The notes under the pieces are model-generated. The model was given only the letters and a program-made list of their open reading frames with translations. It was not told the DNA's origin and did not search any database. A stretch of 64,000 nt of DNA from an uncultured Planctomycetales bacterium (GTDB lineage Bacteria; Omnitrophota; Gorgyraeia; Zapsychrales; Fredricksoniimonadaceae): assembly GCA_964572155.1 (NCBI GenBank), contig CAZNDZ010000001.1:718290-782289 (forward strand), given 5' to 3'. Below, piece after piece: positions 19,677 to 61,100 of the stretch. Positions within the stretch are counted from its first letter, which is position 1; each line of letters starts with the position of its first letter. A program made the position numbers and the translations under genes.

Positions 19677-19683
19677 CATAAAT

Positions 19684-19712
19684 TTGCATAAAGCGTTTCC
19701 CCATGCTACACT
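19684..19712 (+). promoter_or_regulatory. Candidate sigma70 promoter: TTGCAT-N17-TACACT.
   Basis: It lies about 50 nt upstream of the 1,513-aa secreted protein gene. A further CATAAT sits at 19716-19721. Confidence 0.3.
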
Positions 19713-19763
19713 TTCCATAATTTCGTTAGCGCCAAAATACCCTAAATATAAAGAGGTTACGTG

Positions 19764-33750: not shown

Positions 33751-33802
33751 GAGAATGTTATTTTAATTAAATTGTAACGAATTGTGTTTAATGAGGTTAA
33801 CT

Positions 33803-38429: not shown

Positions 38430-38430
38430 T

Positions 38431-40050
38431 ATGTTAAAGAAAATTATGATTTTTAGCATCCTCTTATGCGCTGCACCTTTGGTGTATGCAAATAACTTAA
38501 ATATTTCTAATTTAAACGTCTCAACTGTAGATACAGCGTCGGGAACAATTAGCTTTACGTGTGATGTTACCCAAGATAATAGCTGGCGCAATAATAATAA
38601 TTTTGATGCCGTTTGGATGTTTATGAAATATTCAACCGATGCTGGACAAACATGGAGCCATGCCAGTATGTTTGGTTATGGTACGAATCCTGCAGGTTTT
38701 TCTGCCGGCAACAATTTTGCATTAGTTGTACCTAATGATGGCAAAGGATTCTTTTTACAACGTACAGATTTTGGAGCAGGTTCTATTACAGTAAAAAATG
38801 TAAAGTTTGTTTGGAATTATGCTCAAGATGGCGTGCCTGCCAATATCGCAACCGCTGCAAACACCATTCACAAAGCATTTGGTATTGAAATGGTTTATGT
38901 TCCACAAGGTGCATTTTATGCTGGTGATGGCAACAGCTCGTCAGATTTTCGTTTCAAGTCAGGAAGCAGTGACAATAATCCTTGGTACATTCAAGGAGAA
39001 AATGCGATTAGCACAACAAATAGTGCATCTAATGGATATTTCTATCAAAGCACGGGAGCAACAGGTGAAAATAATAGTGGCGATGCATTTTTGGTACCAG
39101 CTTCATATCCAAAAGGCTATGCACCATTTTATTTAATGAAATATGAATTAACTGAAGGACAATGGGTGAGCTTCTTTAATACATTATCAACAGCAGCAAA
39201 ATTAAATCGTGATATTACGTCTGCTAATTTAGGTGGAAAAAATTCTGATGGCGTTGTAAAACGTAATACCATTGCATGGGATTCAACTAATCCAACATTA
39301 CCAGCGACAACATTGCGTCCATCACGTCCAGTAAGTTTTGTATCATGGCCAGATGTTGCAGCCTATGCTGCATGGGCAGGTCTTCGTCCTATCACAGAAT
39401 TAGAATTTGAAAAAGCAGCGCGTGGCAAAGACATTGGTGCTAACGCTGATGAATTTGCTTGGGGTTCATCAAGTTATACAGCGATAGGCACAACAGATAT
39501 CACACCAAATCAAGATGAAGTAGGAACGGAAACATTAAATAGTGCTGCAAATTTAAATCGCAATTCATTGGGATTTAGTACGGGTGATGGGCGTAGTGGT
39601 GGGATTGCATCTACACAAGCAGGTCCAGTGCGTGTCGGCATCTTCGCCGCTGGCGCATCTAATCGTATTAGTTCTGGTGCAGGATTTTATGGCAACATGG
39701 AATTATCGGGCAATTTGGCAGAACCAGTTGTAACCATTGGTCGTACTCAAGGTCGTCAGTTCTTAGCATCACATGGTACGGGTGCATTAACGAGCTTATC
39801 AGGCTATGAAGGAAATGCTGCTAACACGGATTGGCCAGGCTTGGATAATGTGAATGCAAGCCGTGGTATTACAGGTACCGTTGGCATTGGTTACCGTGGG
39901 GGAGATTTTAATTCATCAAATATTCGCACCTATCAATTGTCGTCAAGAACATATGCAGCGAAAGATCCTGATTCTTTAGGATTTTATCAACGTTCCGATG
40001 CAGGGTTTGGTGTTAATCAGGGCGGCCGTTTAGGTCGCAGTGCGCCGTAA
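38431..40050 (+). CDS. Secreted protein with a C-terminal FGE-sulfatase (SUMF1/GldJ/GldK-like) domain, paralog B.
   Basis: It is collinear with paralog A; compare ANNLNISNLNVS with ANNLTVSNVALGS, and ITELEFEKAARGK and YRGGDFN. The ATG at 38431 starts the signal peptide MLKKIMIFSILLCAAPLVYA. The 38386 extension overlaps gene A. Confidence 0.6.
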   Translation: MLKKIMIFSILLCAAPLVYANNLNISNLNVSTVDTASGTISFTCDVTQDNSWRNNNNFDAVWMFMKYSTDAGQTWSHASMFGYGTNPAGFSAGNNFALVVPNDGKGFFLQRTDFGAGSITVKNVKFVWNYAQDGVPANIATAANTIHKAFGIEMVYVPQGAFYAGDGNSSSDFRFKSGSSDNNPWYIQGENAISTTNSASNGYFYQSTGATGENNSGDAFLVPASYPKGYAPFYLMKYELTEGQWVSFFNTLSTAAKLNRDITSANLGGKNSDGVVKRNTIAWDSTNPTLPATTLRPSRPVSFVSWPDVAAYAAWAGLRPITELEFEKAARGKDIGANADEFAWGSSSYTAIGTTDITPNQDEVGTETLNSAANLNRNSLGFSTGDGRSGGIASTQAGPVRVGIFAAGASNRISSGAGFYGNMELSGNLAEPVVTIGRTQGRQFLASHGTGALTSLSGYEGNAANTDWPGLDNVNASRGITGTVGIGYRGGDFNSSNIRTYQLSSRTYAAKDPDSLGFYQRSDAGFGVNQGGRLGRSAP

Positions 40051-40104: not shown

Positions 40105-43100
40105 ATGTTAAAAATTAAATTACAGTTAAAGAAACTGTGCGTCACAACGGTCATATTGATCGTCATGTCGATGGTTTCTTCCTCTGCATTTGCCCAATAC
40201 TCTGGCGGTTCACAAACTGGCAGCGGCGAAGCCACGATCGGTCAAGACATCTTCAAGGGTGGTCGCCAAGGTTCTTCCACCGTCGGAACTTCTAATGGTG
40301 GTTCTGCTTTATCTCATGGCGTAGCAACAAAGCTATATTTCGCTGTACAACCATCAGCGTCAAAACACAGTCACACCTTTGATCGTCAACCTGTAGTTGT
40401 TGTTCAAGATGCGAACGGAAATACAGTAACTGACGATAATACCACCCAAATCAAACTTGAAATCGGCAACAATCCAGGCAATGGGTATATCGAAGGTGTA
40501 ACCACGATTACAGTTGTTAATGGTGTTGCAACATTTTCAAATTTAAACATCAGCAAAGCTGGCCCACTATACACGTTAAAAGCTTCAGCAACAGGTCTTA
40601 CAACAGCATATTCAGAATCATTCGAGATTTATGCAGGTACTGGTCCAAAGGTTGCCGCAGTTTGGGATAATGCTGCAGGAAAATATCGCATTTATACTTG
40701 GGTTGAACAAGATAATCAAAGGCAAGATGTTGATAATACAGGTGATGATACCTGTGATACCCATACTATTTATGCATACGATGGTTCAACAGAAGCAACA
40801 TTAACAATGACAAAAGATGATGCAAATGATTATTGTTACACCGCTTCAGGAGATGCATGGACACCATCTAGTACAGCCAATTCCTATTTTCTTGATTTTC
40901 AGATTACGCTCGATGCTTCTTCTTATAGAACCTATGCTCCATTAGATTTAATTAAACCTGCTTTACAAGGCATTAGAGCGAAGACTGATTTAATTAATTG
41001 GACAAACGTTACAGATATTAAATCTAAAACAGACACGATTAACTGGACAGATGTCACGACCATTAATGCTCATACCAATAGCATCAATTGGCAAGATATT
41101 GGGGTCTTAAAATCAAACGTCAGCAGCATCAAATCAATAACAGACACCATTGATACATCAGTTAATTGGCAAGACATTGTTGTTCAAACGAAATCAGGTG
41201 TAAATTGGAAAGACATAGCTAGCACAACATTAAAGGGTATCAACTGGGATGATTTAAGCGTCTTAACAAATGTTGCGGTGAACTGGCGCGAACTTAATGT
41301 ATTAGGTAGAGCCGGTGTCAACTGGAACGACTTAAATACATTAACGCGCATTGGCGTCAATTGGCGTGATTTTGAAGTATTAGGTCGTGCACGTGTTAAT
41401 TGGTCTTCGATGGCTGAAATGGGTAAGGTTGGTATCAACTGGTATGACATGGCAGTCATGTCTGGTGCCCGTGTTACTTGGTCACAACAAATCAATTGGT
41501 ATAGCTTAGCTGATTTAACCACCGCTGGTGTTAATTGGTCGGATTTAAACGTTATGTCTGCAAAAAATATCAATTGGACCGACATCAATTCATTGAGTCG
41601 TGCAGGCGTTAATTGGAATAATTTCGGTTTATTAACCACAGTAGGTGTTAATTGGAATGATTTAACAGTCTTCTCAAGAACAATTATCAACTGGGATGAT
41701 TACGCCGTTCTTAGTCGTTCTGGAATCAATTGGGCGAACTTTGGTAATTTAACAACATCCAGCATTAACTGGAATGACATCAATGTTTTGTCGAGAAATG
41801 GCGTCAATTGGAACGACTTTGGTGTTCTCTCAAAAGCTGGCGTTAATTGGAACGATCTGCGTATCTTCACCAGAGCTGGTGTTAACTGGCAAGGCTTAAA
41901 TGTTTTTAGCAACACTTACGTTAATTGGGATGGGTTAAACCTTATGTCCACCAACGGCGTCAATTGGACAAATATTGGTTTACTCTCAACTGTAGGAGTT
42001 AATTGGGCAGATCTTAACGTAATGAGCCGCACTGGTGTAAACTGGGGCGATTTAAACCGCATGAGTGGTTTGGGTGTTAATTGGGCGGACTTAAATCGCT
42101 TAAGTGCCGTCGGTGTTAATTGGGCAGATTTAAATGTCTTAACAAAGTCTGGTATTAATTGGTATGACATGAACAGTTTCACAAAGGCGGGAATCAATTG
42201 GACAGACTTTGGTGTATTTAGTAAGACTGGCATCAATTGGAACAATATTAATATTTATGCAAGTGCCAATGTTAACTGGCAAGGGTTATATGTCTTAACA
42301 ACCAGTGGCATCAATTGGTCAAACATTGGAACCATGACAAGTACAGGTATTAATTGGAATGATTTTGCTGTCATGACTGTTAAGAGTTTGAATTGGGAAG
42401 ATTTTGGTATCCTGTCAAAGGTTGGCGTGAATTGGACAGATCTTGGAACATTTAGTAAAGCAGGTGTCAATTGGTATGATATTCAATCCATGGGTACTAA
42501 AGGAATTAACTGGAATGATTTTAATATATTAAGCAAAGCTTCAATTAATTGGACAGATTTTGGTTCTCTTGGCAAAGCAGGTATCAATTGGAACGATATT
42601 GGTGTTCTTTCTAAAAATGGCGTCAATTGGCAAGATTTAAATGTCATGTCTAAAGTAGGTATAAATTGGACTGATTTTAATCGTTTATCTGGTGTAGCGG
42701 TCAATTGGTCTGACATTGGTGTTTTATCAAAGATTGGAGTTAATTGGCAAGATTTCAACGTCATCAGCAAAGTTGGCGTTAATTGGAATGATTTTGGAGT
42801 TTTATCCAAAGCTGGTGTGAATTGGAGAGATTTAAATATCTTAAGCAGCACAGGTGTCAATTGGTATGACATGAATATTTTAAGCAATACTGGAACCAAT
42901 TGGTCTAATTTTGCTGTATTAAGTAAAGTTGGCGTTAATTGGAATGATTTTGGAGTTCTCTCAAAGGCAGGGATCAACTGGAATGATTTGACAGTGATGA
43001 GCCGCACCAATGTCAACTGGGGTGATTTAAATCGCATGAGCAGCCTCGGTGTAAATTGGGCAGATTTAAATCGCATGAGTGGACTTGGTGTCAATTGGCA

Positions 43101-46100
43101 AGATTTCACGGTTTTAACCAAGGCAGGCATCAACTGGACAGATTTTGGTGTGATTGGTAGAACGGGTATTAATTGGTATGACTTAAATGTATTTACAAAG
43201 TCAGGTATTAACTGGACAGATTTTGGGGTTTATACAAAGGTTAGTATCAATTGGGTTTCTTTAGCTTTGCAATCTACTAATGCTGTTAATTGGAACGACG
43301 TTGCCAAACTTTCTGCATCAAATGTTAACTGGAATTTCTTTTCTGCATTGTCTACGACCAATGTTAACTGGAATGACATTACCGTCTTAAGTAAGGCAGG
43401 CATCAATTGGAATGATATCGGTGTCTTAGCTGCCAATGGCGTCAATTGGAATGATCTTAATGTCTTAACTAAGGTTGGTGTTAACTGGAATGATTTTGCG
43501 GTCCTTGGCAAATCCGGTATCAATTGGAGAGATTTAGGCATATTAAGCACCGTTGCGATTAACTGGCAAGATTTTAATGTCATGTCAAAGACAGGTGTGA
43601 ATTGGGGCGATTTAAATCGCATGAGCAGCCTCGGCGTTAATTGGGCAGATTTAAATCGCATGAGTGCGTTAGGCGTTAATTGGGCAGATTTTAACGTATT
43701 AACGCGTTCTGGAATTAACTGGAATGATTTTGGTGTATTAAGCAAAACTGGTGTTAACTGGAATGACTTAGGCGTGTTAGCCAAGGCAGGCGTTAATTGG
43801 AATGATTTTGGAGTCTTAAGCAAGATAGGCATCAATTGGAACGATTTGAATGTTTTAAGTAAAGTTGGCACAAACTGGAGAGATTTTGCAGTATTAAGCA
43901 CTGTCGCTGTTAACTGGCAAGATATGAATGTGATTTCAAAGTCAGGAGTTAATTGGAATGACTTTGGTGTGTTATCAAAATCTGGTGTTAATTGGCAAGA
44001 TCTCAATGTCTTATCTAAAAATGGTATTAATTGGAATGAATTTGTCGTCTTAGGGCGCGCAGGTATTAATTGGCAAGATATCAATGTAATCAGCAAAGTA
44101 GGCGTTAACTGGTCAGATTTTAATGTATTATCCAGAAACGGTGTTAACTGGCAAGATTTGAATGTTTTATCAAAAGCAGGATTAAATTGGCAAGATTTCA
44201 ATGTTTTATCAAAATCAAGAGTCAACTGGCAAGACTTTACAGTTTTAAGTTCTGCAGCTATTAACTGGCAAGATATTAATGTTTTATCTAAGGCTGGTGC
44301 TAATTGGCAAGATCTAAATGTTTTAACTAAAGGTGGTGTCAATTGGCAAGATATTAATACCTTAACTAAAGCGGGTATCAACTGGCAAGATATGAACCAA
44401 TTGACCAGAACAGGTATTAATTGGCAAGATGTGAATGTATTAACAAAGACCGGCGTTAACTGGCAAAACTTTAATGTCTTAACTAGCTCAGGTATTAATT
44501 GGCAAGATTTAAATGTATTAAGCAAGACAGCAATTAATTGGAACGATTTTGGAGTTCTTGCGAAAGCTGGCGTTAATTGGAACGACTTAAATGTTCTTTC
44601 AAAATCTGGTGTTAATTGGAATGATTTTGGTGTCTTAAGTAAAAATGGTGTGAATTGGAACGACTTAAATGTTCTTACCCGCAGCGGCATTAACTGGAAT
44701 GATATGAATGCTCTTTCTAGAGCTGCAGTGAATTGGAATGATTTTAATGTTTTAACCCGCACATCTATCAACTGGCAAGATTTCACATCTTTGAGCAAAG
44801 CTGGCGTTAACTGGAATGATCTTAATGTTTTAAGTAAGACAGGTATTAATTGGCAAGATTTCAACGTGATAACAAGAACCAATGTTAACTGGCAAGATTT
44901 AAATGTTCTCTCAAAAGCTGGTGTTAATTGGAATGATTTCGGTGTATTAACAAACTCTAGCGTTAATTGGACAGGTCTCAATCTTTTAACAACAGCTGGA
45001 GTAAATTGGGCAAATCTAAACGTATTAAGTACAACAGGTGTTAATTGGGCTGATTTTGGTGTCTTAACAAAAATTGGTGTCAACTGGAGTGATTTGAATG
45101 TATTAACAAAATCTGGTGTGAACTGGCAAGATTTTGGCGTATTAAGTAAAGTGGGTGTTAATTGGCAAAATTTCAATGTATTAAGTAATGCAGGTATTAA
45201 TTGGAACGATATTGGTGTCTTAGCCAAAACAGGTATCAACTGGAATGACTTAAATGTCATGTCACGTACCGGCGTAAACTGGGGTGATTTAAATCGCATG
45301 AGCTCATTGGGTGTTAACTGGGCAGATTTAAATCGCATGAGCGGCTTAGGTGTGAATTGGGCAGATTTCACTGTCTTAACCAAGGCTGGCGTTAACTGGA
45401 ATGATTTTGGTGTCATGAGCCGCGTTGCAGCAAACTGGTATGATTTGAATGTCTTTACACGTGCAAGCATCAATTGGAATGATTTTGGTGTATTAGCGAA
45501 GGCAGGTATTAATTGGAATGACTTAAATGTTGTTACCAAAGCCAATGTTAATTGGAATGACTTTGCTGTCTTATCTAAGATTGGTGTTAACTGGCAAGAT
45601 ATGAATGTCTTGACCCGTAATGCTGTTAATTGGTCAGATTTTAGTGTCATGAGCCGTTCAAGTATTAATTGGCAAGGCTTAAATACATTAACAACCGCAG
45701 GCGTTAACTGGACAAACTTAAATGTTTTAAGTTCAACGGGTGTTAATTGGACAGATTTAGGCATTTTGACGACGACAGGTATTAATTGGCAAGATTTTAA
45801 TACTCTGAGTAAAGCTGGCGTCAATTGGAATGATTTAGGTGTTCTTTCTAAAACAAGCATAAATTGGCAAGATTTTACTGTACTTGGAAAAGCAGGAATT
45901 AATTGGAATAGCTTAGGCGTAATGTCTAAGGTTGGTGTCAATTGGAATGATTTCACTGTCATGAGCAGATCCAATGTCAATTGGGCCGATTTAAACAGCA
46001 TGAGCTCATTGGGTGTTAATTGGGCTGACTTAAATCGCATGAGCGGCCTAGGTGTGAACTGGCAAGATTTTACTGTATTAACTAAGGCTGGCGTTAACTG

Positions 46101-49100
46101 GAATGATTTTGGAGTAATGAGCCGTGTTGCAGTTAACTGGTCTGATTTTAACGTCTTAAGCAAGTCTGGTATCAACTGGTCAGACTTAGGTGTTTTAGGA
46201 AAAACAGGCATTAACTGGAATGACTTTAATGTATTGAGCAAGTCTTCTATTAATTGGAATGACTTAGGTGTTTTAGCAAAAGCCGGTGTCAATTGGAATG
46301 ACTTTAATGTATTAAGCAAGTCGGGTGTTAATTGGAACGACCTAAATGTTTTGAGCAAAGCAGGGGTAAATTGGAATGATATTAATGTCATCACAAGAGT
46401 TGGCGTAAATTGGAACGATTTTGTTGTCTTAGGTCGTGCTGGTGTTAACTGGAATGATTTTGGTGTGGTCAGTAAGACAGGTATCAATTGGAACGACTTT
46501 GGTGTTTTAGCCAAGGCTGGCATCAATTGGAACGACTTAAATGTCTTATCTAAAGTTGGCGTCAACTGGAATGATTTTGGAGTTCTTGGTAAAGCAGGGA
46601 TCAACTGGAATGATTTAAATGTCCTTTCACGTGCTGCAGTGAATTGGAGTGATATTAATGTCCTTTCCAAAATAGGTGTTAACTGGCAAGATTTGAATGT
46701 CTTAACTAAGACTGGTGTTAATTGGAGTGACATGGGCGCCTTAAGCAAGGCTGGCGTTAATTGGCAAAACATCGGCATCCTAAGCACTGTCGGTGTAAAT
46801 TGGCAAGATTTTAATACCTTAAGTAAGGCTGGTGTTAACTGGAATGACTTTGGCGTCTTATCAAAGGTTGGCGTCAATTGGAGTGATTTAAATGTCTTAA
46901 GTAAAACTGGTATCAATTGGAATGATTTTGGTGCTTTGTCAAAGATTGGTGTTAACTGGCAAGATTTAAATGTTTTAAGCAAGGCAGGTTTAAATTGGAA
47001 TGACATCGGTGTCTTAAGTAAAACTGGCATCAACTGGAATGACTTTGCTGTCTATTCTAAAGTTGGCATCAATTGGCAAGATTTTGGTGTGTTGTCAAAA
47101 GCTGGCCTAAACTGGACTGACTTTGGTGTCTTAAGTAAGACCGGTGTTAATTGGCAAGATTTAAATGTTCTTACCCGCAACGGCGTAAATTGGAACGATT
47201 TTGGTGTCTTAAGCAAAGCAGGAGTAAATTGGAATGATTTAAATGTATTATCAAAAATTGGTATTAATTGGTCAGATTTCAATGTCTTAACAAAATCCAG
47301 CATAAATTGGAATGACTTGAATGTCCTTTCAAAATCTGGCGTTAATTGGAATGATTTTGGAGTGCTTGCAAAAACAGGTGTTAATTGGCAAGATTTCAAT
47401 GTCTTAACAAGAACCGGAGTTAATTGGAACGATTTCGGAGTTATTTCTAAGGTAGGTGTTAATTGGCAAGACTTAAACACGTTAAGTAAGGTAGGCATTA
47501 ACTGGCAAGATTTTGCAGTCCTCGCAAAAACATCTATCAACTGGCAAGACTTTGCAGTCTTAGGCAAAGCCGGTGTTAACTGGAATGATTTTGGTGTCTT
47601 AAGTAAATCAGGTGTCAACTGGCAAGATTTGAATGTGATGAGCCGCAGCGCTGTAAATTGGGGCGACTTAAATCACATGAGCTCCGTTGGTGTTAATTGG
47701 GCAGATTTAAATCGCATGAGTGGTTTGGGTGTTAACTGGCAAGATTTCACCATCTTGACTAAGGCGGGCGTTAATTGGAATGACTTTGGTGTCATGAGCA
47801 AGGTTGGCGTCAACTGGAGCGATCTTAATGTGGTCAGCAAGATCGGTGTCAATTGGAGTGACTTTACTGTTCTTTCAAAGATTGGCGTGAATTGGCAAGA
47901 TTTGAACGTAATGTCTAAGGTTGCCGTTAACTGGGGTGACTTTGCCGTCTTAAGTAAGACCAGCATTAATTGGAACGACATGAATGTTCTTTCCCGTAAT
48001 AATATCAACTGGAATGATTTTGGTGTGATGAGCAAAGTTGGTGTTAATTGGAATGACATGAATGTTTTAAGCAAAGCCAACATCAATTGGTATGACATGA
48101 ATGTCTTAAGTAAAATTGGTGTTAATTGGCAAGATTTGAATGTTGTTAGCAAGACAGGTGTTAACTGGAATGATTTTGGTGTCATGTCTAAGGTTGGGGT
48201 TAATTGGAATGACTTAAATGTCTTAAGCAAGTCTGGTATCAATTGGCATGATTTCGGTGTGTTAACAAAGTCTGCTGTTAACTGGTCAGGGCTTAATTCC
48301 TTATCAACAGCAGGTGTCAACTGGTCTAACTTGAATTTATTAAGTTCTGCTAATGTCAACTGGACCGACTTAGGTATTTTAAGTAGCGCAGGTGTTAACT
48401 GGAATGACATGGCTCGTTTAACCACAACTGCGATCAATTGGAATGATATTAATGTCTTAACCCGCACTGGTATTAATTGGAATGATTTGAATGTCCTCTC
48501 TAGAATTGGCATGAACTGGGCAGATTATTCTGTTCAAACCCGCGCTGGTATCAATTGGTATGACTTAAATGTGATGAGCCGCACCGGTGTAAACTGGGGT
48601 GATTTAAATCTTATGAGCTCATTGGGTGTTAACTGGGCAGATTTAAATCGCATGAGTGGATTGGGTGTCAATTGGCAAGATTTCAATGTATTGACCAAGG
48701 CAGGCATTAATTGGAATGACTTTGGTGTGATGAGTAAAGTTGGCGCTAATTGGAACGACTTAAATGTTCTAACAAAAGTCGGCATCAACTGGATGGATGT
48801 AAGCGTTCTTGGAAAAACAGGTATTAACTGGCAAGATTTAAATACTTTAAGTAAGTCTGGAATTAATTGGAATGACTTTGGTGTGTTAAGCAAGATTGGT
48901 GTTAACTGGAACGACTTGAATGTCTTAAGCCGTACTGGTGTAAACTGGAATGATGTTGGCGTTCTGTCTAAGACCGGTGTCAATTGGCAAAACATGAATG
49001 TCTTAAGTAATGTAGGTATCAATTGGAACGATATCGGAGTGCTTTCCAAAAATGGTGTTAATTGGAACGACTTAAATGTGCTTACAAAATCTGGCATCAA

Positions 49101-52100
49101 TTGGAACGACATCGGCGTATTCTCTCGCGTAAATATTAACTGGCAAGATTTGAATGTCTTTAGCCGCACCGGCATTAATTGGAACGACTTTGGGGTTTTG
49201 TCAAAGATTGGTGTTAATTGGAGCGATTTGGGCGTCATGTCTAAGGTTGCTGTTAATTGGAGCGATTTTAGCGTGTTAAGCAAGACAGGTTTGAATTGGA
49301 ACGATTTGAATGTCTTGTCTCGCAATAATATCAATTGGAATGATTTTGGTGTGATTAGCAAAGTCGGAATCAATTGGAACGACATGAATGTCTTAAGCAA
49401 AGCAAATGTTAACTGGATTGATGTCGGTGTATTAAGCAAGACAGGTGTTAATTGGCAAGATTTGAATGTCTTAAGTAAGACAGCCATCAACTGGAATGAT
49501 TTCGGTGTGTTATCAAAGGTTGGGGTAAATTGGAATGATTTCAATGTGATTTCCAAGGTTGGTGTTAACTGGAATGACTTTGGTGTATTGAGTAAGATTG
49601 GCGTTAATTGGACAGATTTTGGCTCTTTAACCAAAGCTAATATTAATTGGAATGATCTTAATGTCATCGGACGCACCGGCATCAACTGGAATGATTTCGG
49701 AGTTCTATCTAAGGTTGGGGTGAACTGGAATGACATGAATGTTTTAACAAAGTCCGGGATCAATTGGTATGACTTCAACGTTTTAAGTAAAGCAGGTGTC
49801 AACTGGTATGACATGACGGTCATGACGAGAAACAGCGTCAACTGGGCTGGATTAAGTTCATTAAGTAACGCCGGTGTCAACTGGACAAACTTAGGTATCT
49901 TAACCAGCGCTAATGTTAACTGGTCTGATCTTGGAACCTTGAGTAAAGCGAGCATCAATTGGGTTGACATTGGTTTATTAGGTACCTCTGGTATTAATTG
50001 GTCTGATGTAAGTGTCTTAAGCCGTACAAGTGTTAATTGGAATGACTTAAATGTCTTAACTAAGTCAGGTGTCAATTGGAACGACTTTGGTGTGATGAGC
50101 AAGATCGGTGTTAACTGGTCTGATCTTAATGTCATCAGCCGCACCGGCGTTAACTGGAATGATTTTGGTGTATTAACAAAGACCGCTGTTAACTGGCAAG
50201 ATTTATCCGTCGCCAGCAGAATTGGCGTTAACTGGAATGACTTTGGTGTCTTAAGCAAGATTGGTGTTAATTGGCAAGACATGAATGTCTTAAGCAAGAA
50301 TGGCATCAACTGGTTAGACATGAATGTCTTAACCAAGGCTGGTGTCAACTGGTCTGATGCAGCTACCTTAAGTAAAGCCAGCATCAACTGGAATGATTTT
50401 GCCGTCCTCGGTAAAACAGGTATTAATTGGTACAACTTCAATGTATTAAGTCGCGTTGGTGTTAACTGGAATGATTTGGCTGTCATGAGCCGTAGCAGTG
50501 TGAATTGGTCTGACTTAAATAGCATGAGCTCCTTAGGTGTTAATTGGGCAGATCTAAACCGCATGAGCGGCCTTGGCGTTAACTGGTCAGATATTACCGT
50601 CCTTTCTAAATCAGGCATTAATTGGAACAATTTCGGGGTCCTAAGCACGGTTGGTATTAATTGGAACAGTTTAAGCGTGATGGGCAACGTTGGTGTTAAC
50701 TGGAATGATATTCAAGTCATCAGCAAGACAGGCATTAATTGGAACGACTTAAATGTATTAACCAAGACCGGCGTTAACTGGAATGATTTTGGTGTCATGA
50801 GCAAGGTTGGTGTTAACTGGAGTGATCTTAATGTCTTAAGCCGCACCAGCATCAACTGGAATGACATGAATGTCTTAACCAGAATTGGTGTCAACTGGCA
50901 AGATTTGAATGTGTTAAGCAAGACTGGCGTTAATTGGAATGATTTTGGTGTCATGAGCAAGATCGGTGTCAATTGGCAAGATTTCAATGTGTTAAGCAAG
51001 ACTGGCGTTAACTGGAATGATTTTGGCGTGATCAGTAAAACAGGCATTAATTGGTATGACTTAAATGTCTTAACAAAATCAGGTGTTAACTGGAATGATT
51101 TTGGTGTCTTAAGTAAGGTTGGCGTTAACTGGTATGACATGAATGTCATCACCCGCAATGGCATCAACTGGAATGATTTTGGAGTTCTATCGAAGGCGGG
51201 CGTTAATTGGAGCGACATGAATGTTATCACTCGCATTGGCATGAACTGGAGTGACATGAGTGTCTTGAGCAAGACAGGTTTAAATTGGAGCGATATTGGC
51301 GTCTTAAGCAAGACAGGTGTTAACTGGAATGACTTAAATGTCGTTAGCCGCACGGGCATTAACTGGAATGACTTTGGTGTCTTGTCAAAGATTGGCGTTA
51401 ATTGGAGCGACATGAACGTTTTATCTAAGACAGGTATCAATTGGTATGATTTTAATGTCTTAAGCCGTGCGGGCATCAATTGGCGCGATTTAAATATTTT
51501 GACGAAAACCAGCGTCAATTGGGTTGGTTTGAGTTCATTGAGTAATGCTGGTGTTAACTGGACAAACTTAGGCACATTAACCAGTTCAAGCGTGAATTGG
51601 TCAGATCTTGGTGCGCTAAGTAATGCGGGTGTTAATTGGAATGACTTTGGTGTCTTAAGCAAGACAGGAATTAACTGGCAAGATTTGAATGTCTTTACCC
51701 GTGCCAGCATTAATTGGAGCGATTTCGGTGTCCTATCTAAAACAGGCATTAATTGGTATGACTTAAATGTTGTAACAAAAGCTGGATTAAATTGGAATGA
51801 CATCGGTGTGCTTTCTAAGAATGGTATCAATTGGAATGATATCGGCGTCTTATCTAAGGTTGGTATTAATTGGAATGATATCAGCGTTGTTAGCAAAACA
51901 TCTGTCAACTGGTCTGACTTAAATGTGTTGACCAAGGCTGGTATTAATTGGAATGACTTCGGGGTTTATAGCAAGGCTGGTATCAACTGGTATGACATGA
52001 GCGTCTATAGCAAGGTTGGTATCAATTGGTATGACATGAATATTTTGACAAAGTCTGGTGTTAACTGGAATGACTTAAGCATCTTGAGTAAGACGGCTAT

Positions 52101-55100
52101 CAACTGGAGTGATTTCGGGGTCATGTCAAAGACAGGCGTTAACTGGTATGACTTAAATGTCTTATCAAGGGTTGGCGTTAATTGGTATGACATGAATGTA
52201 CTGACTCGTAATAGCATCAACTGGAACAGCATTGCATCCTTAAGCTTAAATGGCATCAATTGGTCTAACTTCACAGTGATGTCACGCGCAGGTGTTAACT
52301 GGGTAGATTTAGGTGTCTTGTCTACATCATCTGTCAATTGGACAGGGATGAATGTCCTGTCTAATGCCAGCGTCAACTGGATCGGTATCGCTGATTTATC
52401 TCATACCAATGTTAACTGGGCTGCGTTACAAGATATTTCTTCCGCAAATGTTAACTGGGAAGGTATCGGTGTCTTAAGTAATTCTGGCGTTAATTGGAGC
52501 GACATCACGGTCTTAAGTAAGAACGGCATTAACTGGAGCGACCTATCTGTATTAGGTAGAACGGGCATCAATTGGAATGATATTGGTGTTGTTTCTAAGA
52601 CAGGCATCAATTGGAACGATTTGAATATCTTAAGCAAGACAGGCATCAATTGGTATGACATGAATCGTCTTTCTAACACAGGCATTAACTGGAATGATAT
52701 CGGCGTGTTAAGTAAGAACGGCGTTAACTGGAATGATTTCAATGTCATTAGTAAAGTTGGTATCAATTGGAGCGATTTAGGTGTGTTAGGCAAGACAGGC
52801 ATCAATTGGTATGACATGAATGTCTTGTCTAAGACAAATATCAATTGGAGCGATTTAAATGTCTTAACCAAGACAGGTATCAATTGGTATGACATGAACA
52901 TCTTGAGCAAGACCGGCATCAATTGGTATGACATGAATGTCTTAAGCAAGACAGGCATCAATTGGAATGACTTTGGTGTGTTATCGAAGAATGGCATTAA
53001 TTGGAATGACATGGGCGTCTTAACTAAAGTTGGCATCAATTGGAGCGACTTCAATGTTCTCTCTAATTCAGGGGTCAATTGGTATGACATGAATGTCTTA
53101 ACCAAGTCAGGTGTTAATTGGTATGACTTAAATGTCTTATCTAAGAATGGCATTAACTGGAATGATTTTGGTGTCTTGTCAAAGGTTGGCATCAACTGGA
53201 ATGACTTTAACGTCTTAAGCAAGAGCAATATCAATTGGTATGATTTCAACGTCTTAAGCAAGGTCGGCGTTAATTGGAGAGACTTAGGGATCTTAACCAA
53301 GTCCTCAATCAATTGGCAAGGATTGAACGACTTATCAAATTCAGGTGTCAACTGGACAAACTTAAGCATCTTAAGTGCTGCGTCCGTTAACTGGAGCGAT
53401 TTTGGAACATTAAGTAAAGCTGGCGTTAACTGGAATGATTTAGGTGTCTTAAGTAGAACAGGTGTTAATTGGAGCGATTGGGGCGTTTTAACTAAGACTG
53501 GTATAAATTGGAGTGACTTAAATGTCTTAAGCCGTACAGGATTAAATTGGAATGACATCGGTGTCTTAAGTAAAGTTGGCGTGAATTGGAGTGATTTGAA
53601 TGTTGTCAGCCGCACAGGTGTCAACTGGAATGATTTTGGTGTGCTCTCAAAGACAGGCATTAACTGGGGCGATTTAGGTGTGTTATCTAAGACAGGTGTT
53701 AACTGGTATGACATTAATGTCTTAAGCAAAAATAATATCAACTGGAATGACATTGGCGTATTAGCCAAGGCTGGCATTAACTGGTATGACTTCAACATTT
53801 TAAGCAAAGCTGGCGTCAACTGGTATGACTTAAATGTCTTAGGCAAATCTGGCATCAATTGGTATGACATGAATGTTTTAACCAAGACAGGTATCAATTG
53901 GAACGATTTAGGTGTATTGGCAAAAGCTGGCATCAATTGGAGCGACATGAATGTCATGAGCCGCACCGGCGTAAACTGGGGCGATTTAAACCGCATGAGC
54001 AGCTTGGGCGTTAATTGGGCAGACTTAAATCGCATGAGCGGCATTGGTGTCAACTGGCAAGATATCTCGGTATTAAGTAAGAATGGCATCAACTGGAATG
54101 ACTTCGGTGTCTTAAGCAAGACAGGTATTAATTGGAATGACATTGGCGTGTTATCGAACACAAGCATCAATTGGTATGACTTTAACGTCTTAAGCAAGAC
54201 CGGCATCAACTGGAATGATTTAGGTGTGATTTCCAAGACCGGCATCAACTGGAGTGATATCGGTGTCTTAGCAAAGACGGGCATCAACTGGAATGATATT
54301 AATGTGGTCAGCCGCACCAATATCAACTGGAGTGATTTTACAGTCTTAAGCAAAACAGGTATTAATTGGAATGATATCAGCCGCTTATCTACCGTCGGTG
54401 TAAATTGGAACGATATTGGTGTGTTATCAAAGAATGGTATCAACTGGAACGACTTAAATGTCTTAAGTAAAACAGGCATCAACTGGAATGACTTTGGTGT
54501 GATGTCAAAGGTTGGCGTCAACTGGTACGACATGAATGTCTTAAGTCGCACCGGCATTAACTGGAATGACGTAAATACATTAACCCGCAACGGCATCAAC
54601 TGGAAAGATTTGAGTGTCTTTAGCAATGCCGCGATCAACTGGCAAGGTTTGAATGACTTGTCGAACTCTGGTGTTAACTGGACCAACTTAAGTATCTTGA
54701 GCTCAGCGTCGGTTAACTGGAGTGATTTAGGCGCATTAAGTAAAGCCGGCGTTAACTGGAATGACTTTGGTGTCTTAAGCAAAACAGGCGTCAACTGGAG
54801 CGATTTAGGTATCTTAAGCAAGACAGGCATCAATTGGTATGACATGAATGTCTTATCAAAGACTGGTATCAACTGGTATGACTTCAACGTCTTAAGCCGT
54901 GCCGGCGTCAATTGGGGTGACTTGAATGTTGTTAGCCGCACTGGCGTTAACTGGAATGACTTCGGAGTTCTCTCTAAGACGGGTATTAACTGGAATGATT
55001 TAGGTGTCTTGTCAAAGACAGGTGTCAATTGGTATGACTTCAATGTCTTAAGCCGTGCTGGTGTTAATTGGGGCGATATGAATGTGATCAGTCGCACCGG

Positions 55101-58100
55101 CATCAACTGGAATGACTTTGGCGTCTTATCAAAGGCTGGCGTTAACTGGCAAGATTTCAATGTGGTCAGCCGCGCAAACATTAATTGGTATGATTACAAT
55201 GTCTTAAGCAAAGCTGGTATCAACTGGAATGATTTCAATGTCCTTTCTAAGGCTGGCGTCAACTGGTATGACTTAAATGTGTTGGGCAAGTCTGGCATCA
55301 ATTGGTATGACATGAATGTTTTAACCAAGACAGGTATCAATTGGAACGATTTAGGTGTATTGGCAAAAGCTGGCATCAATTGGAGCGACATGAATGTCAT
55401 GAGCCGCACCGGCGTAAACTGGGGCGATTTAAACCGCATGAGCAGCTTGGGCGTTAATTGGGCAGACTTAAATCGCATGAGCGGCATTGGTGTCAACTGG
55501 CAAGATATCTCGGTATTAAGTAAGAATGGCATCAACTGGAATGACTTCGGTGTCTTAAGCAAGACCGGTATTAACTGGAATGACATTGGTGTCTTAGCCA
55601 AGACAGGTATTAATTGGTATGACTTCAACGTCTTAAGCAAGACCGGCATCAACTGGAATGATTTAGGTGTGGTCTCCAAGACGGGCATCAATTGGAGCGA
55701 TATCGGTGTCTTAGCAAAGACAGGCATCAACTGGAATGACATTAATGTGGTAAGCCGTGCAAATATCAACTGGTATGACTTTAACGTCTTAAGCAAGACA
55801 GGCATCAATTGGAATGACATGAGCCGCTTGTCAACAGTTGGTATCAACTGGAATGACATTGGTGTGTTGTCGAAGAATGGCATCAACTGGAACGACTTAA
55901 ATGTCTTAAGCAAAACAGGCATCAACTGGTATGACTTCAATCGTCTCTCTAATACAGGCATCAATTGGAGCGACATGAATGTCTTGAGCCGCACAGGTAT
56001 CAATTGGAATGATTTCAATGTCTTAAGCAAGACAGGTGTTAACTGGAGAGATTTGAGCGTCTTTAGTAATGCCGCGATCAACTGGCAAGGTTTGAATGAC
56101 TTATCAAATTCTGGTGTTAACTGGACTAATTTAAGTATCTTGAGTGCAGCGTCTGTCAACTGGAGTGACTTAGGTGCATTAAGTAAAGCAGGCGTTAACT
56201 GGAATGACTTTGGTGTCTTAAGCAAAACAGGCATCAACTGGAGCGATTTAGGTATCTTAAGCAAGACAGGCATCAATTGGTATGACATGAATGTCTTATC
56301 AAAGACTGGTATCAACTGGTATGACTTCAACGTCTTAAGCCGTGCCGGCGTCAATTGGGGTGACTTGAATGTTGTTAGCCGCACTGGCGTTAACTGGAAT
56401 GACTTCGGAGTTCTCTCTAAGACGGGTATTAACTGGAATGATTTAGGTGTCTTGTCAAAGACAGGTGTCAATTGGTATGACTTCAATGTCTTAAGCCGTG
56501 CTGGTGTTAATTGGGGCGATATGAATGTGATCAGTCGCACCGGCATCAACTGGAATGACTTTGGCGTCTTATCAAAGGCTGGCGTTAACTGGCAAGATTT
56601 CAATGTGGTCAGCCGCGCAAACATTAATTGGTATGATTACAATGTCTTAAGCAAAGCTGGTATCAACTGGAATGATTTCAATGTCCTTTCTAAGGCTGGC
56701 GTCAACTGGTATGACTTAAATGTGTTGGGCAAGTCTGGCATCAATTGGTATGACATGAATGTTTTAACCAAGACAGGTATCAATTGGAACGATTTAGGTG
56801 TATTGGCAAAAGCTGGCATCAATTGGAGCGACATGAATGTCATGAGCCGCACCGGCGTAAACTGGGGCGATTTAAACCGCATGAGCAGCTTGGGCGTTAA
56901 TTGGGCAGACTTAAATCGCATGAGCGGCATTGGTGTCAACTGGCAAGATATCTCGGTATTAAGTAAGAATGGCATCAACTGGAATGACTTCGGTGTCTTA
57001 AGCAAGACCGGTATTAACTGGAATGACATTGGTGTCTTAGCCAAGACAGGTATTAATTGGTATGACTTCAACGTCTTAAGCAAGACCGGCATCAACTGGA
57101 ATGATTTAGGTGTGGTCTCCAAGACGGGCATCAATTGGAGCGATATCGGTGTCTTAGCAAAGACAGGCATCAACTGGAATGACATTAATGTGGTAAGCCG
57201 TGCAAATATCAACTGGTATGACTTTAACGTCTTAAGCAAGACAGGCATCAACTGGAATGACATGAGCCGCTTGTCAACGGTTGGCATCAACTGGAATGAT
57301 ATCGGTGTCTTAGCCAAGACTGGTATTAATTGGAACGACTTAAATGTCTTAACCAAGACAGGCATCAATTGGAATGACTTTGGTGTGTTGTCAAAGGTTG
57401 GCGTTAATTGGAATGACTTAAATGTCTTAAGCCGCACTGGCATCAATTGGAATGACGTTAATACGTTAACACGCAATGGTATTAACTGGAGAGATTTGAG
57501 CGTCTTTAGTAATGCCGCGATCAACTGGCAAGGTTTGAATGACTTATCAAATTCTGGTGTTAACTGGACTAATTTAAGTATCTTGAGTGCAGCGTCTGTC
57601 AACTGGAGTGACTTAGGTGCATTAAGTAAAGCAGGCGTTAACTGGAATGACTTTGGTGTCTTAAGCAAAACAGGCATCAACTGGAGCGATTTAGGTATCT
57701 TAAGCAAGACAGGCATCAATTGGTATGACATGAATGTCTTATCAAAGACTGGTATCAACTGGTATGACTTCAACGTCTTAAGCCGTGCCGGCGTCAATTG
57801 GGGTGACTTGAATGTTGTTAGCCGCACTGGCGTTAACTGGAATGACTTCGGAGTTCTCTCTAAGACGGGCATTAACTGGAATGACTTAGGTGTGTTAAGT
57901 AAGAATGGTGTCAATTGGTATGATTTCAATGTCTTAAGCAAGTCTGGCATCAATTGGAACGATATGAATGTCTTAACCAAGACTGGTATCAACTGGTATG
58001 ACATGAATGTCTTGAGCAAATCTGGCGTTAACTGGTCTGACCTAAATGTATTAACCAAGACAGGCATCAATTGGTATGATTTCAATGTCCTAAGCAAGGC

Positions 58101-61100
58101 TGGCATCAATTGGAATGATTTTGGTACATTGACCAAGACGGGTATCAATTGGTATGACTTTAACATCTTAAGTAAGACAGGCATTAACTGGAATAACTTT
58201 GGTGTCTTAAGTAAGGTTGGTATTAATTGGAATGACATGTCGGTGATGAGCCGTGCTAGCGTCAACTGGGCTGATTTAAATAGCATGAGCAGCTTGGGCG
58301 TCAATTGGGCTGATCTTAATCGCATGAGCTCAATCGGTGTTAATTGGAATGACATCGGTGTCTTAAGCAAGACAGGTATCAACTGGAATGATTTTGGAGT
58401 CATCTCTAAGACAGGTATTAACTGGAATGACTTTGGTGTGTTGACCAAGGTTGGTGTTAACTGGAACGATTTAGGCGTGCTTGCCAAGACAGGTATCAAT
58501 TGGAGCGATTTCAATGTCTTAACCAAGACAGGTATTAATTGGAGTGATTTAGGTGTCTTAGCCAAAACAGGTGTCAATTGGAACGATATTGGCGTCTTAG
58601 CCAAGACAGGTATTAATTGGAATGACTTAAATGTCTTAAGCCGTACTAATATTAACTGGAGTGATTTCGGGGTCTTAAGCAAGAATGGCATTAACTGGTA
58701 TGACATGAATGTCTTATCTCGTGCAGGTATCAACTGGAATGACATTGGTGTGTTGGCCAAGACAGGTGTCAATTGGAATGACTTTGGTGTCTTAAGCAAG
58801 ACAGGCATCAACTGGAATGATTTAGGTGTCTTAGCTAAGGCAAGCATTAATTGGAGCGACATCGGCGTCTTAAGTAAGACAGGTGTTAACTGGAATGACT
58901 TAAATGTCATTAGCCGCACAGGTGTCAATTGGAATGACTTTGGTGTCTTGTCAAAGGTCGGCGTCAATTGGAATGACTTAAATGTCTTAAGCCAATCCAG
59001 TATTAACTGGCAAGATTTCAATGTCTTAAGCAAGACAGGCGTTAATTGGAGAGATTTAGGCGTACTAACCAAGTCTTCTATTAACTGGCAAGGTTTAAAT
59101 GACTTAACCAACTCTGGTGTAAACTGGACTAACTTAAGTATCTTAAGTGCAGCGTCGGTAAACTGGAGCGACCTAGGTGCATTAAGTAAGGCTGGCGTAA
59201 ACTGGAATGACTTTGGTGTTCTTTCAAAGAATGGCATCAATTGGAACGACATGAATGTCATGAGCCGCACCGGTGTAAACTGGTCAGATTTAAATCGCAT
59301 GAGCAGCTTGGGTGTCAATTGGGCAGATTTGAACAAGATGAGTTCCATCGGTGTCAATTGGCAAGACATTGGCGTCTTGAGCACAACGGGCATTAATTGG
59401 CATGACTTTGGTGTCTTAAGTAAGACTGGTATTAATTGGAATGATTTTGGAGTCATCGGTAAGATGGGTATCAATTGGTCAGATTTTACGGTGCTCTCCA
59501 AGGTTGGTATTAATTGGAACGACATGAGCGTATTAAGCAAGAACGGCATTAACTGGAATGATATTGGTGTCTTAGCAAAAACAGGCATCAACTGGAATGA
59601 CCTCAATGTGATTAGCCGCACCAATGTTAATTGGAGCGATATCGGCGTCTTAAGTAAGACTGGTTTAAATTGGAATGACTTAAATGTCTTAACCCGTACA
59701 GGTATCAATTGGAGTGACTTTGGGGTGTTAGCTAAGACAGGCGTCAACTGGAATGACTTAGGTGTCTTGAGCAAAACGGGTGTTAATTGGAACGACATCG
59801 GTGTCTTAGCAAAGACAGGCATCAACTGGAATGACTTTGGTGTCTTAAGCAAGACAGGTATTAATTGGAATGATTTCGGTGTGTTGGCCAAGTCAGGCAT
59901 CAACTGGAATGATTTTGGTGTGATGACAAAAACAGGTTTAAATTGGAATGACTTAAATGTCCTAACTAGAACTGGCATTAATTGGTATGACATGAATCGT
60001 CTCTCTAATACAGGCATCAACTGGAATGATATGGCACGCTTGTCAACGGTTGGCATCAACTGGAATGATATCGGTGTCTTGGCAAAGACAGGTATCAACT
60101 GGAATGACTTAAATGTCTTAAGCAAGACAGCGATCAACTGGAATGATATCGGTGTCTTAAGCAAGAATGGTATCAATTGGAGCGACATGAATGTCTTAAG
60201 TCGCACAGGTATTAATTGGAATGATTTCAATGTCTTAAGTCGCGTTGCTGTCAACTGGAGAGATATGAGTGTATTAAGCAATGCATCCATTAACTGGAGA
60301 GGCTTAAATGACTTATCAAATTCAGGTGTTAATTGGACTAACTTAAGCATCTTAAGTGCTGCCGCTGTTAACTGGAGTGATTTTGGTGCCTTAAGTAAAG
60401 CTGGTGTCAACTGGAATAACTTAGGTGTAATGAGCACCGTTGGTATTAATTGGAATGATTTTAGCAAGTTGTCTCAGACGGGTATTAATTGGAATGACTT
60501 AAATGTTTTGTCTAAGTCTGGTATCAACTGGTCTGGTATTGATGTGTTATCTAGTGCTGGTGTTAACTGGCAAAACTTTGGGGTATTAACCAATGCTGGC
60601 GTCAATTGGACCAATATGAGTTTATTGTCAGCCTCGGCGATCAATTGGACGGATTTAGGTGTCATGACCACCATTGGCGTCAATTGGAATGATATTCAAG
60701 CGTTGACGACAAAGGGCGTGAATTGGAATGATTTCGGTGTCTTAAGTAAGGTTGGTATTAATTGGAACGACATGAGCGTCTTGGCTCGCACAGGTATCAA
60801 CTGGAACGATTTCAATGTCTTAAGCCGTAACGGCATCAATTGGTACGACATGAATCGTCTTTCTAATACAGGTATCAACTGGAATGATATTAGCGTGTTG
60901 GCTCGCACGGGCATCAACTGGAATGACCTAGGTGTGGTTTCCAAGACGGGCATTAATTGGAATGACTTTGGTGTCTTAAGCAAGAACGGCATCAACTGGA
61001 ATGATTTAGGGGTCTTGTCAAAGACAGGTCTTAACTGGAGTGATTTCGCGGTGATGGGTAAGACAGGTATTAATTGGAATGATTTGGGCGTATTATCTAA

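Follow-up and report, generated by a model that had tools for sequence, protein, structure and literature searches.

We analysed a window of 64,000 nucleotides (positions 718,290 to 782,289 of contig CAZNDZ010000001.1, assembly GCA_964572155.1) from an uncultured bacterium that GTDB places in the Omnitrophota. The window contains a giant gene encoding a long array of 13-residue repeats anchored by an Asn-Trp (NW) pair, and the array is interspersed with two recurring variant motifs (motif 1 and motif 2), which a first-pass annotation made from the letters alone had described as punctuation dividing the array into higher-order blocks. Table 1 lists the features. The plus-strand frame of the gene is open from 40066 to the end of the window (7978 codons), and comparison with the tail of a homologous locus, L004, places about 110 codons of the gene beyond the window. 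The protein begins with a probable Sec signal peptide, MLKIKLQLKKLCVTTVILIVMSMVSSSAFA/Q (MLKIK...SSSAFA/Q), continues with about 270 residues of non-repeat sequence, and enters the tandem array at residue 309. A model of the Ig-like N-terminal region, built for the homologue P0033, was matched by Foldseek to filamin, invasin, FdeC and S-layer Ig-like domains. The C-terminal domain (about 170-250 residues, as seen from the window together with the tails of L004, L011, L012, L014, L016, L022, L023, L027 and L030) contains repeated T(L/I)FGK segments. It ends in ..VVVKTWFESEE in most homologues (the longer ones, from genome loci), with IIVKTWFETD and VVQAWMEQEK as variants, and it may be a sorting or anchoring signal. 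With its signal peptide, Ig-like N-terminal domains, about 580 units and conserved C-terminal domain, the giant protein is predicted to be secreted. The antisense open reading frames on the minus strand between 42483 and 63530 (168-1276 residues) are shadows of the stop-poor repeat and were not taken as genes.

The array contains 579 NW anchors in frame, 573 of which are at exact 13-residue spacing, and the five spacing exceptions are confined to its two ends. Asn3 and Trp4 are invariant within the unit consensus, and the charges of the generic unit are Asp6 and Lys12. A weak two-unit (L-N/F-G) alternation runs through the array of the window. Identity between units is only about 60% in DNA and about 54% in protein, so the array is old and diverged and not the product of recent slippage. 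We note that N-x-S/T sequons occur in the array, both as Asn3-Trp4-Ser/Thr5 and as Asn6-Leu7-Ser8 (in the second unit of motif 2, ..NWTNLS..).

Table 1. Features of the giant repeat gene and its neighbourhood (positions in the window unless a locus is named; n/45 and n/41, residues identical to the motif consensus)
Feature	Position	Strand	Remarks
Giant NW-repeat protein gene	40105..63999	+	ATG at 40105; AAGGG upstream; 3' end cut by the window
Probable Sec signal peptide	40105..40194	+	Read from the sequence; homologues laid out alike
N-terminal tandem beta-sandwich (Ig-like) region	40300..40965	+	Homologous region of P0033 modelled, pLDDT (predicted local distance difference test) 80-96
Array, about 580 13-residue units	40990..63636	+	Consensus G-[IV]-N-W-x-D-[LFIM]-x-V-L-[ST]-K-x
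NW spacing of 19 instead of 13 residues (..VTWSQQINW..)	41437..41494	+	Early array; also in P0001, P0003, P0004, P0006, P0009 and P0033
Unbroken 13-residue register, 567 consecutive units	41488..63600	+	Holds every motif copy
Non-repeat C-terminal domain, beginning only (about 120 residues)	63637..63999	+	Conserved; cut by the window end
Motif 1, copy 1	42019..42153	+	37/45
Motif 1, copy 2	42994..43128	+	44/45
Motif 1, copy 3	43579..43713	+	39/45
Motif 1, copy 4	45256..45390	+	44/45
Motif 1, copy 5	45958..46092	+	41/45
Motif 1, copy 6	47635..47769	+	40/45
Motif 1, copy 7	48571..48705	+	43/45
Motif 1, copy 8	50482..50616	+	37/45
Motif 1, copy 9	53953..54087	+	40/45; within the 37-unit higher-order repeat
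Motif 1, copy 10	55396..55530	+	Recent duplicate of copy 9
Motif 1, copy 11	56839..56973	+	Recent duplicate of copy 9
Motif 1, copy 12	58243..58377	+	34/45
Motif 1, copy 13	59257..59391	+	36/45
Motif 2, signature copy (Gly6, Asn6)	41917..42033	+	Newly found
Motif 2, signature copy	42268..42384	+	Newly found
Motif 2, degenerate copy	44959..45075	+	25/41
Motif 2, degenerate copy	45661..45777	+	26/41
Motif 2	48274..48390	+	29/41
Motif 2	49834..49950	+	30/41
Motif 2	51511..51627	+	31/41
Motif 2	53305..53421	+	39/41
Motif 2	54631..54747	+	40/41; within the higher-order repeat
Motif 2	56074..56190	+	41/41; within the higher-order repeat
Motif 2	57517..57633	+	41/41; within the higher-order repeat
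Motif 2	59077..59193	+	40/41
Motif 2	60286..60402	+	38/41
Motif 2, signature copy (Gly6, Asn6, Asn6)	60520..60636	+	Newly found
Motif 2	61495..61611	+	30/41
Motif 2, signature copy (Gly6, Asn6, Asn6)	62197..62313	+	Previously reported near 62.2 kb
Third variant block, copy 1	52330..52485	+	Four units, position 6 = Gly, Gly, Ala, Gly
Third variant block, copy 2	63094..63249	+	Near the array end
Higher-order repeat, 37 units (1443 nt), about 3.2 copies	53578..58179	+	85-95% DNA identity, against a 60% background
GspC-like protein	33782..34399	+	
Secretin, PilQ/GspD type	34396..36036	+	
TPR protein	36049..36837	+	Weak PilW/Tgl-like matches
FGE-sulfatase-domain protein 1	36837..38429	+	
FGE-sulfatase-domain protein 2	38386..40050	+	Directly upstream of the repeat gene
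Downstream region in a related locus (protein of about 440 residues, F-type ATPase homologues)	L016 4868-11587		

Motif 1 had been reported to recur about 13 times at irregular spacing, and we found exactly 13 copies at the positions given. Identity to the proposed consensus is bimodal: the copies reach 34-44 of 45 residues, and every other in-register position reaches at most 29 of 45. In 1000 shuffles of the unit order, motif-1 core windows numbered 4.5 on average and 10 at most, as compared to the 13 observed. Successive copies are 25, 15, 43, 18, 43, 24, 49, 89, 37, 37, 36 and 26 units apart. The accompanying statement that nearly all Arg residues of the array sit in this motif proved wrong, as motif 1 holds 33 of the 168 Arg residues of the array (33 of 118 when counting is limited to 42020-59350, the region over which the two motifs had been reported). 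At unit position 9, motif 1 contributes 20 out of 36 Arg residues.

Motif 2 was found at all 13 places proposed for it, and three more copies (41917, 42268 and 60520) bring the total to 16; the copies continue to 62313, so that the proposed end of the region at 59350 is too early. The hallmark shared by the copies of motif 2 is a pair of adjacent units with Gly6 in the first and Asn6 in the second. The window contains 16 such pairs versus 1.44 expected (maximum of 6 in 1000 shuffles; Poisson P = 4e-12), and the reverse order (Asn6 then Gly6) is seen once. Identity to the motif-2 consensus is graded, with six copies at 38-41 of 41 residues (53.3-60.3 kb), four at 29-31, and two at 25-26 that overlap the background tail. 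The spacings range from 6 to 69 units.

A systematic scan had been named as the analysis that could overturn the two motifs, and unbiased scans (for off-consensus three-unit windows and for per-unit typicality) recovered both of them as recurrent, with non-random recurrence. In the array interior the scans yielded essentially only motif 1 and motif 2; what else they returned were a two-member Arg9-Leu10-Ser cluster near the 3' end, the divergent array ends, and a third variant block. The third block occurs twice, with the pattern ..NW.G.. / ..NW.[GS]I.. / ..NW.AL..ISSA / ..NWEGIGV...

The description of the array as divided into higher-order blocks holds for 53.6-58.2 kb, where the 37-unit repeat lies; elsewhere the spacings are irregular (15-89 units for motif 1, 6-69 for motif 2). 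Each copy of the 37-unit repeat carries one motif 1 and one motif 2, so three motif-1 copies and three motif-2 copies are recent duplicates. This is the only recent, regular higher-order repeat that is visible at the DNA level in the array. Older duplicated blocks (70-75% identity, 8-23 units) are also present, many of them centred on the motifs. Similarity between blocks exceeds that between adjacent units, as expected of a higher-order repeat, but the number of units per block is not constant as it is in nebulin.

According to protein and DNA searches, the repeat family belongs to Candidatus Omnitrophota. In a search of 1.84 billion representative proteins, a 24-unit profile retrieved only 450 clusters at E <= 1e-3. 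Nearly all family proteins in the databases are N-terminal fragments that stop at contig ends; two complete short members (P0033, 868 residues, and P0056, 900 residues) run from a signal peptide through an Ig-like region and a few dozen NW units to a helical C-terminal domain of about 170-250 residues. P0033 has 28 units in strict register and ends in VVVKAWYESE. By scanning genomes with the motif-1 alignment we obtained 33 loci, all with 13-residue NW arrays, which together with the window gave a set of 6,373 units from 34 arrays; a metagenome scan contributed 24 further loci. NW-array matches extend over at least 45 kb of metagenome contig Ga0163146_10000109 (26760-72143; L045, L048, L050 and L051), implying a family member of at least 15,000 residues if they belong to one gene. 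Short strict higher-order periods are seen in some relatives (6 units in L007, with an autocorrelation of 0.97, 2 in L014, 3/6 in L018, and about 7 in L006), in contrast to the long irregular blocks of the window. The unit is not covered by any Pfam, NCBIfam or PDB family, as judged by family scans and a PDB sequence search with the unit profile. Several names returned by the scans were rejected as artefacts of periodicity, namely Ntox33 in Pfam (51.5 bits in total, above the 28.4-bit cut-off, but with no single significant stretch), Lysostaphin_N in Pfam (two stretches within the E-value limit, but 46.1 bits in total, below the 60-bit cut-off), and the RimP and iron oxidase names from the Pfam/NCBIfam scans.

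Among the relatives, loci L001-L005 (from two or three other metagenome-assembled genomes) contain 22 more copies of motif 1, which makes 35 including those in the window. The 35 copies are 74-97% identical to a 39-residue core consensus, and all other positions are at or below 0.64. By comparison, the N-terminal regions of these motif-1-bearing relatives are only 54-60% identical to that of the window. Outside this clade, loose double-Arg9 units were seen just twice (in L007 and L027). When the window was compared with L001 and L004 unit by unit, collinearity was loose, and the best-matching blocks are centred on motifs, each matching several copies. As for motif 2, the order bias extends over all arrays (49 pairs of Gly6 then Asn6 versus 10 in reverse), and Gly6-then-Asn6 is also found in distant lineages (L012, L014, L016, L030, L032, L034, L040 and P0033), where the pairs usually lie 8-35 units ahead of the array end. 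When adjacency was pooled over the distant loci, there was no enrichment (odds ratio 0.67, p = 0.09), because some lineages have Gly6 as a regular unit type; enrichment is seen only locus by locus.

Substitution patterns separate motif 1 from its surroundings. In the two core units of independent motif-1 copies, the proportion of synonymous differences (pS) is 0.64 (dS about 1.4) and the proportion of nonsynonymous differences (pN) is 0.11, while the flanking units have a pS of 0.75 and a pN of 0.29; the estimated dN/dS of the core is about 0.09. Near-saturated pS together with low pN indicates that the copies are old and that their off-consensus residues have been kept. Motif 1 is thus kept by purifying selection, and the variant patches have spread by duplication of multi-unit blocks. 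With a recurrence that is real, non-random and under selection, calling them punctuation motifs is justified. One could instead regard the motifs as neutral fossils of higher-order repeat expansion, i.e., odd units that were copied along with their neighbours and have no function. Duplicated blocks do include motifs (the 37-unit repeat at 85-95% identity and the older blocks at 70-75%), and the irregular motif spacing, the limitation of motif 1 to one clade and the quite different higher-order periods of other lineages (2, 3, 6 and 7 units) agree with it. Neutral copying is nevertheless at odds with a pN of 0.11 (0.29 in the flanks) at a pS of 0.64, with a core that is 74-97% identical in genomes whose N-terminal regions are 54-60% identical, and with the directional 49-to-10 order of Gly6 and Asn6, and we consider it quite unlikely.

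We next to these results place the fold of the unit, which was addressed by mutual information and mean-field direct coupling analysis on the 6,373 units. The strong couplings are (6,9), (8,12), (9,12), (6,13), (5,8), (9,13), (5,12), (5,9) and (8,11); their separations are exclusively 3, 4 and 7, all within positions 5-13, and no i+2 couplings were found. Pair (8,12) is enriched in E-K, D-K, K-E and R-E, loss of Asp6 is accompanied by Asp or Glu at position 9, and basic residues at positions 9 and 12 are mutually exclusive in the window (0 of 41 units, p = 8e-28). Couplings at i+3, i+4 and i+7 with salt-bridge pairs point to an alpha-helix and not to strands, and the beta-type solenoid that the first-pass annotation had assumed is contradicted by the covariation. 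AlphaFold, run on P0033 with true orthologues, made positions 5-12 helical in 27-28 units out of 28. The unit is therefore most likely a short amphipathic alpha-helix spanning positions 4/5 to 12/13. Under helix-capping rules Asn suits an N-cap, and Gly followed by Ile/Val suits a Schellman-type C-cap; Asn3 fits the former, and Gly1 (with Ile/Val2) of the next unit fits the latter. From unit to unit, coupling is weak, with (13,5') one unit apart and (12,12'') two units apart. Some lineages (e.g. L007 and L014) show a strong two-unit alternation; this and the weak alternation in the window are both compatible with a two-helix structural repeat.

Both motifs retain the core of the unit (I/V2, N3, W4, hydrophobic 7 and S/T11) and the exact 13-residue spacing, and they diverge from generic units by 2-7 bits at a few positions (for motif 1, positions 5, 9, 10, 12 and 13 of its two core units and position 10 of the preceding unit; for motif 2, positions 1, 5, 6, 9 and 12). 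Positions 3, 4, 6 and 11 of motif 1 and 3, 4, 10 and 11 of motif 2 stay at control level, as does position 2 in the first two units of motif 2; position 1 deviates only in motif 2, and in motif 1 position 2 is slightly Val-biased (1.3 bits) and position 7 reaches 1.6 bits. In two consecutive units of motif 1, Lys12 is replaced by Ser/Gly, Val9 by Arg, Thr/Ala13 by Leu and Asn5 by Gly/Ala, and Leu10 gives way to Met in three units. In two to three units of motif 2, Asp6 is replaced by Gly and then Asn, Val9 by Asp/Ile and Lys12 by Asn/Ala, and the inter-helix Gly1 by Ser/Ala. On a helical wheel, positions 12, 5, 9, 13, 6 and 10 share a single arc of 160 degrees, a compactness that only 1.9% of six-position subsets reach.

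These observations suggest how the motifs may work. Going by the covariation, short helices would be stacked in great number to give a very long fibre, and the motif substitutions, lying on one helical face, would create distinct surface patches at intervals along it. Motif 1 keeps Asp6 and moves the positive charge back one turn to Arg9, amid small residues at positions 5 and 12 and Leu13, in two consecutive predicted helices; in motif 2 the first unit has its negative charge at position 9 instead of 6, and the second unit has lost both charges. Multi-unit block duplication has propagated the patches, with purifying selection then keeping motif 1. A partner could dock or pack at these patches, or fibres could associate laterally with one another through them. 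Motif 2 might also soften the local turn, and the stack would remain unbroken by either motif. That the motifs are conserved variant-unit blocks, forming selected surface patches on a helical fibre and spread by duplication, has in our judgement about an even chance of being right. Among the roles suggested earlier, interaction modules along a fibre fit best: the substitutions map to one predicted helical face and leave core and spacing untouched, and the function itself is one that we infer.

Another suggestion was that the motifs are kinks that break the stacking register. No copy contains an indel and no phase flip is specific to the motifs, which speaks against this. We also rejected a stutter in which motifs flip the two-unit phase, since flips occur at 7 of 13 motif-1 copies and 9 of 16 motif-2 copies versus 55% at random positions. 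More broadly, the motifs could be structural discontinuities (hinges, kinks or superhelix-correcting irregularities) that give flexibility or relieve strain. Motif 2 lends itself to this best: the position-1 Gly, conserved at 77-83%, changes to Ser/Ala in its first unit (less consistently in its third), both unit charges are lost, and in distant species the Gly6/Asn6 pairs lie 8-35 units from the array end, like edge-type units. A softer hinge effect at motif 2 is possible because its inter-helix Gly is replaced by Ser/Ala. As a general account, discontinuities are unlikely in view of the 567 units in perfect register with no indel at any of the 29 copies, the unchanged core positions, phase flips at the random rate, and the lack of a break or confidence dip at motif units in either AlphaFold model (both models are weak).

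The motifs might also be proteolytic processing sites at which a giant precursor is cut into shorter fibres, as has been proposed for giant Omnitrophota proteins (10.1101/2023.11.21.568195). An S41 peptidase gene lies 9 kb upstream, and motif 1 would expose an Arg-Met-Ser, but nothing links the peptidase with the repeat gene. A cleavage site would need far less than a motif that extends over two to five units and is conserved along its whole length, and most family members lack the motif and would then go unprocessed. We regard processing as extremely unlikely.

Several results weigh against the reading of the motifs as selected patches on a helical fibre. At a core-identity cutoff of 0.72, motif 1 was not found in the 28 other genome loci or the 24 metagenome loci (best 0.69), nor was it found in 73 database proteins, which are truncated N-terminal fragments. 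Being clade-specific, motif 1 cannot be indispensable for the fold, and whatever function it has might be marginal or confined to that lineage. In motif 2, conservation exceeds that of the flanks by a modest margin only (pN of 0.21 versus 0.25-0.30), and the irregular spacing of the motifs argues against a strictly periodic partner. On the structural side, the hydrophobic moment of the unit profile has maxima at about 120 and about 180 degrees and is not decisive, and the array of P0033 was modelled with a pLDDT of 40-48 and its packing was not fixed. In addition, AlphaFold turned a 24-unit segment of the window with both motifs (22 in-register tiles as alignment) into one all-beta 13-residue solenoid (pLDDT 66, predicted TM-score (pTM) 0.63). 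On this view each unit would be one 13-residue coil of a beta-solenoid or beta-roll, and the motifs would be variant coils with altered outward ladders, comparable to the Arg-rich coils of ice-nucleation proteins; the invariant Asn and Trp residues might line up as ladders, and the motif changes do hit the same position in consecutive units. We treated the all-beta model as unreliable, since it is one of five (the other four are below 31 pLDDT) and it has no PDB match by Foldseek (best E = 0.056). Against such a fold, the couplings are at i+3, i+4 and i+7 only, with opposite charges at i+4 and none at i+2, the second AlphaFold run (with true orthologues) was helical, and on structural reasoning a buried Trp hardly fits a 13-residue coil. 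We regard a beta-solenoid as very unlikely.

The genes immediately upstream of the repeat gene include secretion genes, of which only outer components (GspC-like and secretin) are present, followed by genes for a TPR protein and two paralogous FGE-sulfatase-domain proteins. The order secretin-TPR-FGE-FGE-repeat gene is kept in 14 related loci (L001, L005, L007-L009, L017, L018, L020, L021, L024, L025, L028, L029 and L031), in which the FGE-like protein directly upstream of the repeat gene is 37-78% identical. The repeat protein is at most a candidate substrate of the adjacent secretin, the available pointers being its signal peptide and the conserved gene order. Because the array lacks both Cys and Pro, it offers the FGE-like proteins no classical CxPxR site to act on. 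In the type IX secretion and gliding apparatus, FGE-like lipoproteins (GldK/PorK and GldJ) have a structural role. Farther upstream we observed two GT2 glycosyltransferase genes (31670-33719) and, between the cell-division (dcw) cluster and the glycine-cleavage genes, two large proteins of 667 and 1513 residues (17673-24302) with no Pfam or NCBIfam match; the 1513-residue protein has a recurring DAAM motif.

Downstream, all related loci that include the 3' end of the repeat gene next encode a protein of about 440 residues that belongs to no family, and in the 16 loci that extend further it is followed by homologues of the F-type ATPase alpha, b/delta, gamma and beta subunits. Table 1 gives an example; the downstream arrangement was also recorded for L004, L010-L012, L014, L022, L023, L027, L030, L032-L034, L038, L039, L049, L053, L054 and L056. 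The window ends before these genes and L004, from its closest relative, reaches only the first of them, so the ATPase linkage for the genome of the window is inferred from relatives. The ATPase genes probably correspond to the 'symbiotic' ATPase loci described in PMC10066038, and the repeat gene appears to sit inside loci of that type.

A more far-reaching proposal would be that the 13-residue NW unit is a previously unrecognised solenoid class with one helix of about 9 residues per unit, that the extracellular fibre belonging to a conserved Omnitrophota apparatus (secretin, TPR protein, two FGE-like proteins, fibre, unknown protein and F1-like ATPase) is built from it, and that the motifs are docking points maintained by selection for bundling, anchoring, or engagement by the machine or a host surface. 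As a whole this is speculative and rather improbable. The system is of interest for the size of its arrays (at least 8,000 residues in the window and at least 45 kb on one metagenome contig). It is tractable as well, given a simple sequence grammar, a testable structural model from covariation, a conserved neighbourhood that ties the gene to both a secretin and an F1-like ATPase cluster, and two defined variant blocks, motif 1 clearly under purifying selection and motif 2 with a conserved ordered signature. It also illustrates that covariation over thousands of units within arrays can settle secondary structure where AlphaFold results conflict at low confidence.

The closest parallels in organisation are two well-studied repeat proteins. 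Nebulin consists of short helical simple repeats arranged in seven-module super-repeats, its WLKGIGW motif marks a partner-binding site once per block, and its number of blocks varies between species by segmental duplication (PMC7754682). The window protein resembles nebulin in being a giant with hundreds of short repeats, probably helical here as well, and a special motif that recurs with blocks. However, nebulin has modules of about 30-35 residues and a strict seven-module super-repeat that matches the actin/tropomyosin period (PMC7754682), whereas the window protein has 13-residue units, irregular blocks of 15-89 units, and no sequence relationship to it. In ice-nucleation proteins, R-coils keep the fold, switch outward residues to Arg and mediate assembly instead of the main function of the array (PMC10727499). 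They share with the window protein a long array of variable unit number in which a subset of units has changed outward residues, including a switch to Arg; their WO-coils and R-coils, however, are 16-residue beta-solenoid coils (PMC10727499), while the units of the window are probably helical and its variants are dispersed in pairs. The window protein thus belongs with neither, as unit length, probable fold, dispersion of the variants and sequence all differ.

Alpha-solenoids (HEAT, TPR and the leucine-rich variant) are similar in that helix-turn units follow one another in tandem, share a conserved hydrophobic core and bind through variable exposed positions. Known alpha-solenoid repeats have 24-47 residues and two or three helices. 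The unit of the window is far shorter, with 13 residues and a single predicted helix of about 9 residues. A literature search on 13-residue helical repeats returned nothing relevant.

Omnitrophota are ultra-small, uncultured and probably host-dependent bacteria. Their giant genes, found beside type II/IV-like secretion loci, are largely unannotated; an adhesion role has been proposed and their roles have been left open (10.1101/2023.11.21.568195; 10.64898/2026.06.07.730766; PMC10066038). The described giants are 'Archaeovorins' (with HEAT, TPR and enzyme domains and transmembrane segments), the dockerin/TSP3 type, and tandem Pfam-repeat scaffolds. Like them, the window protein comes from this phylum, is long, poorly annotated and probably extracellular, is encoded directly downstream of secretin-type genes, and sits in assemblies that break inside the repeats. 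Those giants are defined by Pfam domains, whereas the window protein is a nearly pure array of an undescribed 13-residue unit: Pfam scans of its N-terminal region, array and C-terminal part and of the complete homologues found no 'Archaeovorin' or dockerin-type domains, and the 13-residue NW repeat is not mentioned in 10.1101/2023.11.21.568195, 10.64898/2026.06.07.730766 or the accessible portion of PMC10066038.

Omnitrophota 'symbiotic' type-2/3 F-type ATPase clusters lie beside type-4a pilus genes and have been compared with the Mycoplasma gliding motor (PMC10066038). The related repeat-gene loci have a similar composition, with secretin, TPR and FGE-like genes upstream and F-type ATPase homologues downstream, but the available text of PMC10066038 describes no repeat protein inside those clusters. 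Set against these systems, the repeat family and its conserved locus are more novel than the punctuation motifs, whose kind of organisation is already known.

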